From an uncultured Candidatus Saccharibacteria bacterium (GTDB taxonomy: Bacteria; Patescibacteriota; Minisyncoccia; Phycocordibacterales; Zambryskibacteraceae): a stretch of 49,026 nucleotides of DNA. The stretch covers positions 1 to 49,026 of the forward strand of contig CAZUDK010000004.1 of the NCBI GenBank assembly GCA_964618905.1, read 5' to 3'. The notes beneath the pieces were generated by a model. That model did not search any database. It was given only the letters and a program-made list of their open reading frames with translations, and had not been told where the DNA came from. Within the stretch, counting starts at the first letter, position 1, and each line of letters begins with the position of its first letter. The position numbers and the translations under genes were made by a program. Shown here piece by piece: positions 8,548 through 37,867 of the stretch.

Positions 8548-8618
8548 TGCCCGATCGTCTAATGGCAGGACGCTTGGTTTTGGTCCAAGAAATTGGGGTT
8601 CGAGTCCCTGTCGGGCAG
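8548..8618 (+). tRNA. tRNA-Gln (anticodon TTG)
   Basis: Acceptor TGCCCGA/TCGGGCA, anticodon arm CTTGG-TTTTGGT-CCAAG, T loop TTCGAGT, discriminator G. CCA is not encoded (followed by CCG). Confidence 0.9.
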
Positions 8619-8619
8619 C
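8601..8619 (+). repeat. 19-nt direct repeat, left copy (CGAGTCCCTGTCGGGCAGC), inside tRNA-Gln
   Basis: Exact match to 10253-10271. Spans T-loop position C56 to one base past the discriminator. Confidence 0.9.
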
Positions 8620-8709
8620 CGTTTAGAGCGTCGTACGAGACGCGTTCATACATCTCTTTTCAAGCTCTGCATAGAGTGGTATTGTTGGTGCCAGCGATAC
8701 AATCCAACC

Positions 8710-9279
8710 ATGAAAGAAATTGAGATTTTGATAGAAGTTAAGAGTGATATAGAAACGGCCAAGAAAGCTCTTGAGCAGTTTGAATTTGTTGGTGCTAAAG
8801 AAGTTATTGATGTCTACTTCACAAGCCCATTTAGGAAAGATTTGCAGCCTGATGAGAGCGGCAGATTAAATAATTGCTACAGAATTAGATCAAAAGATGG
8901 AAAGGCATCTGTTGCCTACAAAGTAGATCACTTCGATAACAACACACAGTGGTCTCATTCTGATGAACACGAAACTGAAATTGGAGACTTTACAACTGCG
9001 CTTGAGATTAATCGCCATCTTGGATTTGAAGAACTCGTAAGAATTGATAACACGAAGTACACCTACATGACTCGTGATTACGAAATAGTGCTGGAGGATG
9101 TAAAGAATCTCGGACTTTTCCTTGAGGTTGAGAAACTTGAGCAGGTCCCAGATGAAAAAGTTGCCGAAACAAAGGAGGAAATTAGAAACTTTCTTAATAC
9201 TCTCAATATTGAATTCGGTGAGGAACAGAATGCTGGAAAGCCAGAGTTAATGATAAGGAAGATTAAGAATCATGGATAA
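8710..9279 (+). CDS. CYTH-domain protein (class IV adenylate cyclase / CyaB-like triphosphate tunnel enzyme)
   Basis: Start set at MKEIEILIEVK (ExExK signature), because the track start 8593 lies inside tRNA-Gln. Also CYRIRSKDGKASVAYK and LGLFLEVE, both typical of CYTH. Confidence 0.75.
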   Translation: MKEIEILIEVKSDIETAKKALEQFEFVGAKEVIDVYFTSPFRKDLQPDESGRLNNCYRIRSKDGKASVAYKVDHFDNNTQWSHSDEHETEIGDFTTALEINRHLGFEELVRIDNTKYTYMTRDYEIVLEDVKNLGLFLEVEKLEQVPDEKVAETKEEIRNFLNTLNIEFGEEQNAGKPELMIRKIKNHG

Positions 9280-10030
9280 TGAGCAAATAAGTTTGTTGCT
9301 TGAGTCTAATGCCAAATTAGCAGAAAGTATTGCAAAATCATTACCTTCATTAATTGAATCGTTAGCAAAGACTAAATTTAAATATACTAGCAAAGCACTT
9401 TTAGGTTTACTTTCCAGAAGTGGGTATCTAAATAGTGCAATTCTTAGTGAATGCAATAACAGGAATGTGTATTCTTCCGCGGTTTTATCTCGATCTATTA
9501 TTGAGCATAATTTTCGACACCTTTACATATACGTTAGAGCATTAAATGAAAATGACGACTCAGTTGGAGAGCGATATTGTAAAAACCTTAAGGCAAATGA
9601 GGATCTTGAATCATTTGAAAAAATCAATAATTACAACAAGGTAGTCTATCCAGAAAAAGATAAATTAAGCACTAAGGGTGATAATAATAATGCAATTCGA
9701 GAGTCAGGAAAGGAATTCCGCATCGAGCAAATATTTTTCTATCTGGTTTCTAATAACAACGATAGTATTAAAGAGATTGAACAATATAAAAAAGAGTACC
9801 TTCTGGGCCGTTTAGAGCAATATACAAATTTTTCTTCTTCAGTACATGGTGGACCGTTTGGTGCAGCAACACTCGAGAATTCCCACCAGAGTAATATTGA
9901 GAATGATTTATTAAGATTCGCACAGAATAGCAACGAGCTACATAAAAGCTTAGTGGAAGCAACTTATTTATTTGGATATTTAATGGACGGCACATTAAAA
10001 GATTGTTACGAGGAGATCAAAAAAATTTAG
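9272..10030 (+). CDS. hypothetical 252-aa helical protein, start overlaps the CYTH stop (ATGGATAATGA)
   Basis: An 8-nt overlap with the upstream gene suggests translational coupling. Low G+C. Motifs RSIIEHNFRHLYIYVRAL and SSSVHGGPFG; family not recognised. Confidence 0.6.
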   Translation: MDNEQISLLLESNAKLAESIAKSLPSLIESLAKTKFKYTSKALLGLLSRSGYLNSAILSECNNRNVYSSAVLSRSIIEHNFRHLYIYVRALNENDDSVGERYCKNLKANEDLESFEKINNYNKVVYPEKDKLSTKGDNNNAIRESGKEFRIEQIFFYLVSNNNDSIKEIEQYKKEYLLGRLEQYTNFSSSVHGGPFGAATLENSHQSNIENDLLRFAQNSNELHKSLVEATYLFGYLMDGTLKDCYEEIKKI

Positions 10031-10080
10031 TGCTCGAGACGCGTCGCTTTGAGTGCTAAAATAAGCTCAATTCCGTCAAT

Positions 10081-10253
10081 CTGGGCTTGGCCGATTAAGG
10101 TCCCAGCCCGAGACGGCCAGCAATGATTTGCAAAAACAGCTGGGAGCTGTTTGAGCAAAGCATCATTGCTTGTTTCGAGAGGGACGAGAAAGCCGGAGCG
10201 CGGCGGAGTGAGGCGGGGTCGAGCAAATTTTCAGCAGAAAATTATGCGTGACC
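10081..10253 (+). ncRNA. candidate structured element, copy A (strand of expression not established)
   Basis: Hairpins CTGGG..CCCAG (10081-10106) and AGCAATGAT...ATCATTGCT (10119-10170, with inner AAACAGCT-GGG-AGCTGTTT), then GCCGGAGCG, GCGGGG and P3 = GGTC GA GCAAATTTTC-AGCA-GAAAATT(A)TGC GT GACC (10217-10253). Confidence 0.5.
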
Positions 10254-10271
10254 GAGTCCCTGTCGGGCAGC
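10253..10271 (+). repeat. 19-nt direct repeat, right copy (tRNA-Gln 3' fragment)
   Basis: CGAGTCCCTGTCGGGCAGC identical to 8601-8619. Followed by CAA, the trailer seen after three other tRNAs in this window. Confidence 0.9.
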
Positions 10272-20214: not shown

Positions 20215-20380
20215 GCGGCTCTTTTCACATTATCCGCAGCAAAAATTTGCGGGAAAACTTTTTCTGTAGTACTAATGAATCCCGTTAGAGATCGCAAAGT
20301 TATGAATCATTATCAAAAGAGGTTAAACTACGACAATACCAAAAGCATTGTCTATCTCTAATGGGATGAATGCCAACGCC

Positions 20381-22561
20381 ATGACAAAACTTTTAATTGT
20401 AGAGTCGCCGTCAAAAGCGAAAACCATAGAGAAGTATCTCGGCAAAGACTTTCGCGTAGTCGCTTCTGTCGGGCATATAAGAGACTTGCCTAAATCAAAC
20501 AAGGCAGCTATCGACATAGCTGGTGGATTCGTGCCACATTATGAAATCTCCAAAGGTAAGGAAAAAGTCGTTTCAGAAATTAAGAAGCTTTCAAAGAAAG
20601 CTGACGAAGTAATACTGGCCACAGACCCTGACCGCGAAGGAGAGGCTATCGCCTGGCATATTAAAGAAGCTGTGGGGCTTAAAGACCCAAAGCGTATAGT
20701 CTTCCATGAGATCACAAAAGAGGCGGTTCAAGAAGCTCTTGAACATCCTCGCAAAATTGATAAAGACTTAAGGGAGGCGCAGGAAGCGCGCAGAGTACTC
20801 GACAGGCTTGTCGGTTACGATCTTTCCGGCCTTATCTGGAAAAAAGTTCGATACGGCCTTTCGGCAGGACGAGTACAATCCCCTGCTCTTAGAATCATTA
20901 TGGAGCGCGAGCGAGAGATCAGAGCTTTTGTTCCTGAGAAATTCTGGACTATCTCGGCCATTCTGCAAAACAAAGACAAAGAAAATCTTGAGTTCATCTG
21001 CTCTGAAGAACCGAAGGATGAAAAAGAAGTCGAGAGAATAATAAATAGCGGCAAGACTGGAGCGTGGAAAGTTACTGATATTAAAGAGACTCAGGTAGCG
21101 CGCGCTCCGCGCGCGCCCTTCATAACCTCCACCCTCCAGCAAGCGGCAAGCTCCAGGCTTGGCTTCTCGCCTTCCCGCACTATGGGTATTGCTCAGAAGC
21201 TCTATGAGGCAGGTCATATAACTTATATGAGAACCGACTCGACAAATCTCGGCAAACAAGCTCAGAGAGATATAGCTTCTCTTGTTAAAAATAAATACGG
21301 CGAGAATTACTTTGAATCTCGATCATTTACAAAAAAATCCAAGAATGCCCAGGAAGCACATGAAGCAATCCGCCCGACTAAAATGTCTTTGGAATCCGCC
21401 GGCGCTACAGAAGAACAGAAAAAACTTTACAGACTTATCTGGCAGAGAACTATTGCAAGCCAAATGAAATCTGCTCAAATAATGCGCACTAAGGTAACAG
21501 CCAACATAACTGGCTCAGGCGAACCTGTTCCTGACTTTTGGTTAAACGGCTCTCGCATTATATTCGACGGCTGGCTGAGATCTGACCCGCACGCCGCAAA
21601 AGAAGATGTGCTTCTCCCTGCTTTGGAAAAAGATGAATCCTTAAATCTGATTAATATAAATTCAGAAGAAAAAGAAACCACGCCTCCGGCAAGATATTCG
21701 GAAGCAGGTCTTGTTAAAGAGCTCGAGAAACGAGGCATCGGCCGGCCGTCCACTTACGCATCTATTATAAAAACTCTCGATGACAGAGGTTATGTAGAGA
21801 AAATAAACAAAGCTCTGCACCCTACTGACACCGGAGAAGTAGTAAGCTCATTTCTTGAAGAGCATTTTCCAAATTATATAAGCGACTCCTTCACCGCATA
21901 CATGGAAGACGAGCTCGATGACATAGCAGCCGGCGACCGCACTTATAAAAAGACTTTGACTGATTTCTATGAGCCGTTTATCAAAGATATTAAATCCAAA
22001 GAAAAGATAGAAAAGGCTACCAACCTCGGAGAAGCACCAGAGGATATTAAATGCCCGACCTGCGGCGGACCAATGATCATAAAACTCGGCAAAGGCGGAA
22101 AATTCCTTTCCTGCAAACGCTTCCCTGAGTGCCAAGGTGCAAGGACGATGGAAGGCAAGGAACTCGAAGGTCCAAAAGATACAGGAGAGCTTTGCCCGAA
22201 GTGCGGCAAAGCCAATCTGGTAACAAGAGAAGGCAAATTCGGATTTTTCACAGCATGCTCAAGATATCCTAAGTGCAAATATGTAAAGAAAGATGAAGAA
22301 CAAGAAAAAGCGAACTCTACAGGTATTCAGTGTCCGGTCTGCAAAGAAGGATACATGAGCGAGCGCCGCGGCAGATACGGAGTCTTCTACTCATGCTCGA
22401 ATTATCCGGACTGCAAATATGCCATCAAAGCCAAGCCTACAGGCAATATCTGCAAAATGTGCGGAAGTTTGATGATGGAAGGCACAAAAACGATACCGGA
22501 GAGGTGTAGCGATAAAGCATGCCCGAATCATCGGCCAGACAAACTTAACTCGGACAAATAG
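20381..22561 (+). CDS. topA: DNA topoisomerase I with C-terminal zinc-ribbon repeats
   Basis: Start set at MTKLLIVESPSKAKTIEKYLG (TOPRIM). ITYMRTDS is the active-site Tyr region. Four CPxCG...C..C zinc ribbons at the C-terminus. Confidence 0.95.
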   Translation: MTKLLIVESPSKAKTIEKYLGKDFRVVASVGHIRDLPKSNKAAIDIAGGFVPHYEISKGKEKVVSEIKKLSKKADEVILATDPDREGEAIAWHIKEAVGLKDPKRIVFHEITKEAVQEALEHPRKIDKDLREAQEARRVLDRLVGYDLSGLIWKKVRYGLSAGRVQSPALRIIMEREREIRAFVPEKFWTISAILQNKDKENLEFICSEEPKDEKEVERIINSGKTGAWKVTDIKETQVARAPRAPFITSTLQQAASSRLGFSPSRTMGIAQKLYEAGHITYMRTDSTNLGKQAQRDIASLVKNKYGENYFESRSFTKKSKNAQEAHEAIRPTKMSLESAGATEEQKKLYRLIWQRTIASQMKSAQIMRTKVTANITGSGEPVPDFWLNGSRIIFDGWLRSDPHAAKEDVLLPALEKDESLNLININSEEKETTPPARYSEAGLVKELEKRGIGRPSTYASIIKTLDDRGYVEKINKALHPTDTGEVVSSFLEEHFPNYISDSFTAYMEDELDDIAAGDRTYKKTLTDFYEPFIKDIKSKEKIEKATNLGEAPEDIKCPTCGGPMIIKLGKGGKFLSCKRFPECQGARTMEGKELEGPKDTGELCPKCGKANLVTREGKFGFFTACSRYPKCKYVKKDEEQEKANSTGIQCPVCKEGYMSERRGRYGVFYSCSNYPDCKYAIKAKPTGNICKMCGSLMMEGTKTIPERCSDKACPNHRPDKLNSDK

Positions 22562-22588: not shown

Positions 22589-22677
22589 TTTTTGTGAGAC
22601 GAAAGCGATGTTTCGCCAGCAGACGAAACCGCGAGTCGGGGTCGCGGAAATTTCTGAGCGACGGCGAGGAAATTATC
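22589..22677 (+). ncRNA. candidate structured element, copy B (truncated, not next to a tRNA)
   Basis: GCGATG, then P2 GTTTCGCC-AGCA-GACGAAAC (22610-22629), then CGCGAGTCGGGG, then P3 GGTC GC GGAAATTTC-[14 nt]-GAAATT(A)TC. The 3' closing strand is replaced by the parB stop region. Confidence 0.45.
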
Positions 22678-23690
22678 TAAATAGAAAAATTCGCCACCGA
22701 GTAGAGGTCTTCGTCCTCTGGTTCATCTTCGGCCATAACCTTCTCTTCCTCCGTCAAAGGCTGAGCATTGCCTGCTATTTCATTAACATTCATTTCTGAT
22801 ATTTCTTTATCTACATCCACAAAGCCGCTGCCTCCTTCTTTCTCAGCTGCACCTGTAAGCTTGTCGAGAAGCGCACGCAGATCTTCCTTTGAGAAAAAGT
22901 CTATAGTAACCCTTCCGCCTCCCTCACCTTCACCCTGACCGGCTTTGGCAGATGTTTTTTCTATACGGACTCGCGTGCCAAGAGTTTCTTTGAACTTGTC
23001 TTCTATATCTATAAGTTCCGGGTCTATAAGCTTACGAGCTCTTTCAACTGCGATATGCCTGGCTATGTTTTCCGATTCCCTGACATTAAGCTTCTTGAAA
23101 ATTATTTCCTTGAAAAGTGTTTCCTGCTCTGAAGGTCTGTCTATGAGCATCATAAGAGGACGAGTATGGCCCTCTGTTATCTTGCCTTCCGCGAGAGCCT
23201 GAGTGATATAATCCGGCAGCGTTAAAATCCTCAAAGTATTGGTAACATATTCGCGGCTTTTGCCAACCTTTTTTCCTATTTCAGCATGCTTGAAACCAAA
23301 CTCCTTAACTAACTTATCAAAAGCTTTAGCTCTATCGACAGGATTCAGATCTTCGCGCTGAATGTTCTCGATGATAGCAAGCTCGAGCTTCATCAAATTG
23401 TTCTCTTCACCGGAACGGATAAGAACAGGAACCTGCTGGAGACCGGCAAGTTTAGAAGCCCTAAGTCTGCGCTCTCCGGCAATGAGTTCATACTCTGTGG
23501 CCAAGCCGCCTGCAGGAGTTTCAACCTCTTTGCGCGTTACTACAAGAGCCTGAAGAACACCGTACTGCCGTATGGAATCTGCTAGAGATTTTAGCTGAGC
23601 TTCGTCAAATTCCCTGCGAGGCTGAAACGGATTCGGTTTGATTTTATTGACCTCGATCCAGAATATTGAATCATTATAGAAATGCGACAT
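22677..23690 (-). CDS. parB: ParB/Spo0J chromosome partitioning protein with acidic C-terminal extension
   Basis: IEVNKIKPNPFQPRREF, GERRLRASKLAGL, HTH, and dimerisation region. About 60 extra acidic residues at the C-terminus. Confidence 0.9.
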   Translation of the reverse strand: MSHFYNDSIFWIEVNKIKPNPFQPRREFDEAQLKSLADSIRQYGVLQALVVTRKEVETPAGGLATEYELIAGERRLRASKLAGLQQVPVLIRSGEENNLMKLELAIIENIQREDLNPVDRAKAFDKLVKEFGFKHAEIGKKVGKSREYVTNTLRILTLPDYITQALAEGKITEGHTRPLMMLIDRPSEQETLFKEIIFKKLNVRESENIARHIAVERARKLIDPELIDIEDKFKETLGTRVRIEKTSAKAGQGEGEGGGRVTIDFFSKEDLRALLDKLTGAAEKEGGSGFVDVDKEISEMNVNEIAGNAQPLTEEEKVMAEDEPEDEDLYSVANFSI

Positions 23691-23738: not shown

Positions 23739-23821
23739 GCTGGAGTGATGGAATGGTAGACATGCAGCACTCAAAATGCTGTGGCCTCACGGCCGTGTGG
23801 GTTCAAGTCCCACCTCCAGCA
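23739..23821 (+). tRNA. tRNA-Leu (anticodon CAA)
   Basis: Acceptor GCTGGAG/CTCCAGC, anticodon loop CTCAAAA, long variable arm TGGCCTCACGGCCGTG, T arm GTGGG-TTCAAGT-CCCAC, discriminator A. CCA not encoded. Confidence 0.9.
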
Positions 23822-23824: not shown

Positions 23825-23935
23825 GCGAAGCTTGTGGGTGGGCTTGAAAGGCGGAGCGATGTTTTGCTAGCAAGCAAAACCGCGAGCCGGGGTCGAGAAA
23901 ATTTGCGAGCGATGGCGAGCAAATTATTCGTGACC
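23822..23935 (+). ncRNA. candidate structured element, copy C (most compact complete copy)
   Basis: P1 CCCACC..CACAAGC-GAA-GCTTGTG-GGTGGG (uses the tRNA 3' end); GGCGGAGCG (23850-23858); P2 GTTTTGCT-AGCA-AGCAAAAC (23861-23880); CGCGAGCCGGGG; P3 GGTC GA GAAAATTTGC-[12 nt]-GCAAATT(A)TTC GT GACC (23891-23935). Confidence 0.55.
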
Positions 23936-23955
23936 AAGTTCCACCTCCAGCACAA
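23935..23955 (+). repeat. 21-nt direct repeat, right copy (tRNA-Leu 3' fragment)
   Basis: Begins at the same T-loop position (C56) as the Gln repeat. Directly follows GTGAC. Confidence 0.9.
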
Positions 23956-37632: not shown

Positions 37633-37783
37633 CAAGAGTGCAAAAATATGCTCTGCTGCATGTTTTTGCACTCTTGTGCCGGGCGGAGCGTTACCGAGCC
37701 TGTAGGCGAGGTCGCGAGCCGGGGTCGAGAAATTTTGCGAGTCCTGCCGGCAGGCAGAGACAACGAGCAAAATATTCGTGACC
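37633..37783 (+). ncRNA. candidate structured element, copy D1 (complete)
   Basis: P1 is a 16-bp perfect hairpin, CACAAGAGTGCAAAAA (37631-37646) / TTTTTGCACTCTTGTG (37663-37678). Then GGGCGGAGCG, a P2 hairpin 37691-37712, CGCGAGCCGGGG (37713-37724), and P3 GGTC GA GAAATTTTGC-[28 nt]-GCAAAAT(A)TTC GT GACC (37723-37783). Confidence 0.55.
37652..37690 (+). repeat. 39-nt exact direct repeat, copy 1
   Basis: TCTGCTGCATGTTTTTGCACTCTTGTGCCGGGCGGAGCG is identical to 37804-37842. Confidence 0.95.
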
Positions 37784-37867
37784 ACAAGACCTTACAGAAT
37801 CGTTCTGCTGCATGTTTTTGCACTCTTGTGCCGGGCGGAGCGATGTTATGTTCAAACATCAAACCGC
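37784..37867 (+). ncRNA. candidate structured element, copy D2 (5' part only, tandem to D1)
   Basis: CACAAGA (from 37783), 14 unrelated nt, then a 39-nt exact repeat of D1, then GCGATG-hairpin-AAACCGC as in copies B and C. Breaks off 13 nt before tRNA-Leu(TAG). Confidence 0.45.
37804..37842 (+). repeat. 39-nt exact direct repeat, copy 2
   Basis: Identical to 37652-37690. Confidence 0.95.

Follow-up and report, generated by a model that had tools for sequence, protein, structure and literature searches.

The 19- to 21-nt block that follows GTGAC behind two tRNA genes of the window (the whole 49,026-nt stretch of DNA analyzed here) is probably the displaced end of a gene into which a structured, non-autonomous element has inserted. 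We infer the mobility of the element from comparative sequence patterns only. An earlier note on this DNA had proposed two readings of the block: (a) an attachment (att) site of a classical tyrosine-integrase element, or (b) the target-matching segment of a 3'-guide RNA such as TnpB omega RNA or Cas12 crRNA. Our results retain part of the first reading and speak against the second.

At the tRNA-Leu locus all features lie on the plus strand. The target gene, tRNA-Leu(CAA), was located at 23739-23821 (ARAGORN, Rfam and sequence) with C56 at 23804, and the left copy of the repeat, consisting of tRNA positions 56-73 plus CAA, extends from there to 23824. The interval 23825-23846 (folds, z -3.7 and -5.9) begins with the hairpin tip GCGAAGC (23825-23831); an antisense segment (23830-23846) comes next and pairs in the folds with the 3' half of the tRNA. 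The scaffold at 23846-23935, recognized by covariation, is the best match to our covariance model R1 (110 bits) and comprises the domains P2 (23850-23888) and P3 (23891-23935), with GTGAC at 23930-23934; C 23935 forms the last pair of P3 and is also the first base of the block. The right copy of the repeat (23935-23955, 21 nt) agrees with the left copy at 20 of 21 positions, differing by C61 → T, and would be the displaced original 3'-end of the tRNA-Leu gene, the left copy being the one presumably borne by the element.

The tRNA-Gln locus, also on the plus strand, has the same plan around a longer insert. The tRNA-Gln(TTG) gene (8548-8618, ARAGORN; C56 at 8601) ends in the left copy of the repeat (8601-8619), which is followed by CCG. 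The cargo and left part of the element (8620-10187; Pfam and sequence) contain no recombinase and encode a CYTH-domain protein (8710-9279, 189 aa) and, overlapping it, a DUF5677-like protein (9272-10030, 252 aa; both Pfam), neither of which was matched by PADLOC. After this 1.6 kb of cargo come an antisense segment recognized by sequence (about 10178-10190), a scaffold with a short P2 (10188-10253; R1 match of 48.5 bits, GTGAC at 10248-10252) and the right copy (10253-10271), identical to the left copy at 19 of 19 positions and followed by CAA. By our arithmetic, an exact 19-mer within 1.7 kb has a chance expectation of about 6e-9. The arrangement proposed earlier, GTGAC and then a tRNA copy starting at C56, is thus real at both loci, as are CCG after the intact tRNA-Gln and CAA after the right-hand Gln fragment; the junction ranges first given (23931-23955 and 10249-10271) begin inside GTGAC, a few bases off, and are otherwise correct.

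We characterized the scaffold by aligning 22 copies, which gave a consensus of two domains (P2 and P3) with 29 pairs, 19 of which show double compensatory changes. The model R1 was built from this alignment and used to align 117 further copies, in which 97.5% of the paired cells were complementary, compared to 35-48% with the partners slid; the 117-copy alignment was fitted to the model, so the slid controls weigh more than the raw percentage. Changes on both sides were found in 27 of the 29 pairs, one G.U pair was kept in 114 of the 117 copies, and some unpaired bases are conserved. With the kept G.U pair excluded, the helices contain 111 G.T against 12 A.C combinations; this bias places the selection for the fold on the tRNA-sense strand, where it might act either as RNA or as single-stranded DNA. 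An Rfam search, in both gathering and E-value modes, returned tRNA matches only and no family for the scaffold.

Within this fold, GTGAC forms the 3' side of the basal P3 helix, opposite GGUCG, and the scaffold appears to end at GTGAC because the P3 helix ends there. The first base of the block completes the helix in 98 of 117 copies by pairing with the G that precedes the GGUCG strand. GTGAC itself is structural and not invariant: it occurred in 30 of 43 copies picked independently of the motif, with C as the following base in 38 of the 43, and the copy behind tRNA-Asp in this genome carries GGCUG...CUAGC in place of GGUCG...GUGAC, a compensatory swap.

The gene end and the antisense segment are separated by a hairpin that is often terminator-like, with a T run. 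A CTGC loop with a following T run is very frequent in this hairpin (for example at loci L087, L062, L123, L095 and L111). A GCGAAGC or GCGGAGC tip, which we take to be a GNA-triloop mini-hairpin that is unusually stable as DNA, stands directly after the rebuilt gene end at 23825-23831 in the window and in the rplL copies of the genome under study (G000, contig C1) and at loci L149 and L152.

Several comparisons assign the left copy of the repeat to the element and identify the right block as the displaced original. Among 20 tRNA-linked copies whose repeats differ, the antisense segment fitted the left copy better in nine and the right copy better in one, with ten ties. The topA locus of one relative has a stack of three units, every one of which brings a gene end of roughly 75 nt, and there too the antisense segment matches the left and not the displaced right copy. 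The right block is a passive, decaying relic: positions 56-73 were retained at 18 of 18 in 22 of 46 C56-class copies, at 16-17 in nine and at 15 or fewer in 15, and some right blocks stop after 8-12 nt. In relatives, nine to ten tRNA-Leu(CAA) genes that lack the element also lack a duplicate of their 3'-end. The earlier note had named two findings that would speak against an att-type reading, namely copies lacking a flank repeat and a duplicate already present in element-free alleles; the decay, duplicate and tRNA-Leu data gave neither. Pairing of the antisense segment exceeded that with shuffled partners only moderately. Compensation by G.U pairs between antisense segment and block was rejected on a loose alignment (G.U 32 versus A.C 43); a stricter count in 17 copies (G.U 19 versus A.C 8) is suggestive only.

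The genome (535 kb, 94% complete) contains 12 copies that match R1. The gene immediately upstream is a tRNA gene in ten cases (Leu-CAA, Lys-CTT, Asp, Arg-TCG, Val-TAC, Gln, Ser-CGA, Ser-GCT, Glu-CTC and Glu-TTC); of the other two copies, one follows rplL and one topA. In the window, the scaffold after tRNA-Lys(CTT) (37678-37783, plus strand) belongs to the position-72 class described below and is followed by the block CACAAGA (37783-37789) and a partial second unit reaching to about 37869. A GC-rich palindrome, CCTGCCGGCAGGCAG (37741-37760), lies inside the P3 loop of this copy and was also seen directly after shortened tRNA relics in two relatives (L147 and L157). The copy behind topA (22594-22682, plus strand) is shortened, having neither GTGAC nor a right block, and its 3'-end overlaps the parB stop codon.

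A genome-wide look for flank duplicates, as the earlier note had advised, tied them to the element. Of the 43 tRNA genes, only 6 had a downstream match to their 16-nt probe (T-loop to acceptor), and each of these bears the element. At tRNA-Ser and tRNA-Glu, repeats of 32-57 nt reach into the trailer and terminator; these long repeats could equally be partial tandem copies. The tRNA-Glu(TTC) array has at least two element units and a 52-nt repeat, and contigs break inside it (end of C7 at 20300-20670 and start of C10), so that the element itself cuts the assembly. Among the contigs from four soil DNA runs, one extends across the Leu locus and contains the element, and none gives an empty site or circular joint at Gln or Leu, a result that, coming from contigs only, decides neither way.

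Two further observations concern the tRNA genes of this genome. Of the 43 genes, 15 have CCA and 14 have CAA directly 3' of the discriminator, and most of the element-bearing genes have CAA. Unrelated scaffolds occur in the same layout (antisense T-loop segment and GAA, then a structured insert, then a tRNA repeat from T55/C56) after tRNA-His (C2, about 26295), after tRNA-Ile (C5, about 868, minus strand) and after the Glu element (C3, about 18090, minus strand), as well as in relatives L194, L198 and L199. This suggests one insertion logic common to several scaffold families.

We extended the search with the covariance model to 41 relatives of the family and order and found the element in 34, at 0-19 copies per genome. 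A pattern scan of GTDB genomes gave 120 loci, mostly in Patescibacteria (Saccharibacteria, Paceibacteria, Kaiser-, Taylor- and Nomurabacteria), with model-confirmed copies also in a few Elusimicrobia MAGs (L017, L018, L032, L115 and L117). One model-confirmed copy (L015) lies on a contig of 2.3 kb whose assignment to Polaromonas may be a binning error. The apparently identical copies of one relative, considered as a recent burst, proved to be one locus assembled on several contig ends. A pattern scan of IMG/VR gave seven matches, none of which fit the covariance model, leaving no viral contig with the scaffold.

These distributions bear on the alternative that the scaffold is primarily a functional structured RNA located 3' of tRNA, tmRNA and a few protein genes, perhaps a processed small RNA with a tRNA-like closing helix, and that the repeats are a by-product of its spread or duplication. 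The strong covariation, the conserved unpaired bases and the kept G.U pair, each of them seen on the sense strand of the upstream gene, are what such an RNA would predict, and so is persistence in the streamlined genomes (0.5-0.9 Mb) of Patescibacteria and some Elusimicrobia. However, copy number varies from 0 to 19 among relatives, with counts of 0, 2 and 5 inside one genus; tandem arrays and shortened copies occur; the terminator-like hairpin with its T run often separates gene and scaffold; and the scaffold matches no Rfam family. On the sequence comparisons at hand, we consider a primary role as RNA improbable and prefer an inserted element.

The targets show where the element enters. Of 160 copies, 92 have a same-strand tRNA gene 11-92 nt upstream of their start. 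The earlier note had placed both of its tRNA-embedded blocks at the same tRNA position, C56, and this holds for one class: among 97 tRNA-linked copies, about 51 have a block that begins at C56 and about 33 one that begins at position 72. Members of this position-72 class, which includes the Lys and Arg-type copies of the window, typically have a block of just CACAA or GACAA after the tRNA's own base 72, and the block measures just 3-8 nt in one third of the tRNA-linked copies. Copies also lie behind tmRNA genes, the block again starting from the T-loop equivalent; inside the end of rplL, where the block consists of the last codons and the stop, and where, in four genomes, synonymous differences separate the left copy from the right; and within the 3' part of topA, which recurs as a target among relatives. 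At every target class the repeat spans from the entry point to the gene end. C56 is therefore one entry point of several, and the common rule is to rebuild the gene end. No common motif was found beside the entry point across targets, which would be odd for a sequence-specific recombinase.

Reading (b), according to which scaffold and 3' block form an omega-RNA, crRNA or bridge-RNA-like guide that steers a nuclease or recombinase to the tRNA gene, draws on two features of the locus: a scaffold followed by 19-21 nt of target match resembles the 3'-guide RNAs, and the fold lies on the strand that would be co-transcribed with the tRNA. Profile searches gave no effector for such a guide. Genes for TnpB (PF07282), reverse transcriptase and IS110 (PF01548, DEDD recombinase) are missing from this 94%-complete genome; in the 41 relatives, TnpB occurs in one, IS110 in none, and reverse transcriptase in 15, unlinked to copy number (rho -0.18). 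The block, moreover, duplicates the left flank, a repeat of a kind that IS200/605 elements do not make; it is just 3-8 nt long in a third of the tRNA-linked copies; it decays; and the internal antisense segment tracks the other, left copy. We consequently abandoned the guide reading, which appears highly improbable.

We then examined the enzymes that might move the element. Clustering of the open reading frames next to the 160 copies gave target genes and their operon mates only, and no recombinase. Where a genome has 10-19 copies, it usually encodes one Xer-sized tyrosine recombinase, and serine recombinases are often lacking; 40 of the 41 genomes, among them the seven without element copies, have a single tyrosine recombinase. 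Serine recombinases were rejected as mobilizer, their presence being unlinked to copy number. A 225-aa open frame at C7:5492-5722 (minus strand) of this genome matches a Y1 transposase profile over its C-terminal two thirds only (E 8.7e-10), and similar Y1-like genes of about 220-270 aa are common in the relatives, up to four per genome. We rejected this candidate as well (rho 0.07; genomes with 19, 15, 12 and 10 copies have none). GIY-YIG nucleases showed a weak link (rho 0.32, p 0.04, among relatives that are not independent) and were set aside, a genome with 15 copies having a UvrC-sized match only. No convincing dif-like site was found near the xer gene or in the scaffold. An autonomous relative with the same att sites and an integrase was sought in this genome, the 41 relatives, the 120 GTDB loci and IMG/VR, and none was found. 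The genome search that the earlier note had advised thus gave no TnpB or IS110 gene and no recombinase within or beside any copy.

These results also weigh on the possibility that the copies are stumps of a tyrosine- or serine-integrase island or prophage, remnants like a cis-mobilizable element (CIME), made of attL, a short attP arm and attR, in which the scaffold would be a duplex arm bound by integrase and accessory proteins. Much of the layout agrees with such an origin: the flank repeat extends to the gene end from a starting point in the T-loop or at the 3'-end, the targets include tRNA and tmRNA genes, tandem units stack as in accretion, one copy has a 1.6-kb cargo, and another tRNA gene of this genome harbors an island that encodes both tyrosine and serine recombinases. 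Against it, ten tRNA genes in 535 kb bear near-minimal copies with related scaffolds at different targets; none of 160 copies adjoins a recombinase; copy-rich genomes (10-19 copies) contain just one Xer-sized tyrosine recombinase and, in many cases, no serine recombinase; the covariation, the kept G.U pair and the 111:12 bias point to selection on a single-strand fold and not on duplex protein sites; and no viral contig in IMG/VR carries the scaffold. We therefore hold an integrase-island origin of the copies to be unlikely.

What survives of reading (a) is its att-type part, that is, an insertion-made repeat of the target's 3'-end with the working end donated by the element, as indicated by CCG and CAA at tRNA-Gln, the synonymous differences in rplL, the stacked topA ends and the decay of the right copies. 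Its attribution to a classical tyrosine-integrase element is not supported, given that no copy carries or adjoins a recombinase, that one Xer-sized enzyme coexists with up to 19 copies, and that the fold is strand-specific and not a plain duplex arm.

We propose the following model for the inserted element. From 5' to 3' it would consist of a replacement gene 3'-end starting at the entry point, often a terminator-like hairpin, an antisense segment able to pair with the replacement gene end, and the P2/P3 scaffold, the last helix of which would be closed by GTGAC together with the base that begins the old gene end. Insertion would displace the old 3'-end to the right, leaving it as an attR-like copy, and the element would donate the working end. 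The moving form might be a circle or a single strand that links GTGAC to the gene-end copy carried by the element itself. In this joined form P3, the sense/antisense hairpin and P2 could make a three-way junction that presents the recombination point, and the entry point would fall at the boundary between P3 and the hairpin. The likeness of this structure to folded single-strand sites (attC and CTX attP(+)) implies a trans-acting enzyme. A host enzyme would presumably act in trans; of the candidates, only the single Xer-sized tyrosine recombinase is nearly universal. At one topA array, four mismatches between left and right copies fall within the first 13 bases to the right of the junction, a poor fit to a tyrosine-recombinase overlap region at that place.

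We regard any particular enzyme, and likewise targeting programmed by base pairing, as doubtful. In a specific version of the model, insertion needs no protein of the element and nucleic-acid complementarity sets the target: the sense/antisense hairpin would mimic the target beside the three-way junction and recruit a housekeeping enzyme, for example a lone Xer-type recombinase, to whichever gene end the hairpin encodes. We think it rather unlikely that this version is correct; if it were, it would represent naturally programmable site-specific insertion without a dedicated recombinase or a guide-RNA effector.

If the proposal of an inserted element holds, CPR bacteria with genomes of 0.5-0.9 Mb bear up to 19 copies of a 110-170 nt element, and its entry into the ends of essential genes (tRNA, tmRNA, rplL and topA) would be harmless because the element rebuilds each end. 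A gene-less element with one related scaffold and many targets would then raise the question of how targets are chosen and which host enzyme cuts and joins. There are practical consequences as well: repeats of the element break assemblies at tRNA genes, and tRNA-derived fragments can be mistaken for pseudo-tRNAs or guides.

A full-text literature search found no published description of the element, and we compared it with known systems. Like TnpB omega-RNA, Cas12 crRNA and IS110 bridge RNA, it has a structured, conserved scaffold adjoining a target-matching segment; unlike them, it comes without an effector gene, its matching segment is a decaying duplicate of the left flank, and it has no Rfam match. 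REP and REPIN elements are mobilized by a single-copy RAYT, a Y1 transposase. The present element resembles them in forming many short, hairpin-forming, strand-specific, protein-less repeats per genome, and one Y1-transposase-like gene is present here; the Y1 gene, however, does not track copy number, and REPINs neither rebuild gene ends nor make flank repeats.

Integrative elements of tRNA and tmRNA genes have identity blocks from the T-loop to the 3'-end, and their integrase-less derivatives are known as CIMEs and accretion arrays (PMC5704250, PMC7563491, PMC3146451). As in these systems, insertion is in the 3' part of tRNA, tmRNA and protein genes, a replacement end is brought in and the old end stays as a direct repeat, tandem units occur at one site, and there are small versions without recombination genes. 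The att-like sites around a unit lacking recombination genes, by which a CIME is recognized, are found here. Unlike integrative elements and CIMEs, the present units are just 110-170 nt long, no related autonomous integrase-bearing element was found, one related scaffold serves many targets per genome, and a covarying single-strand fold is combined with an antisense copy of the target.

The integron attC site and the attP(+) hairpin of CTX phage are folded single-strand recombination sites, the latter used by XerC/D. The element differs from both in its targets, which would be gene 3'-ends picked by element-borne sense and antisense copies and not attI or dif; its scaffold, moreover, is well conserved in sequence, with no IntI-type gene and no dif similarity found. 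It resembles attC and CTX attP(+) in a strand-specific fold kept by compensatory changes (G.T 111 versus A.C 12), in a recombination point that would lie at the base of a hairpin, and in short gene-less units that can form arrays, and for all of them a host or trans-acting tyrosine recombinase is plausible.
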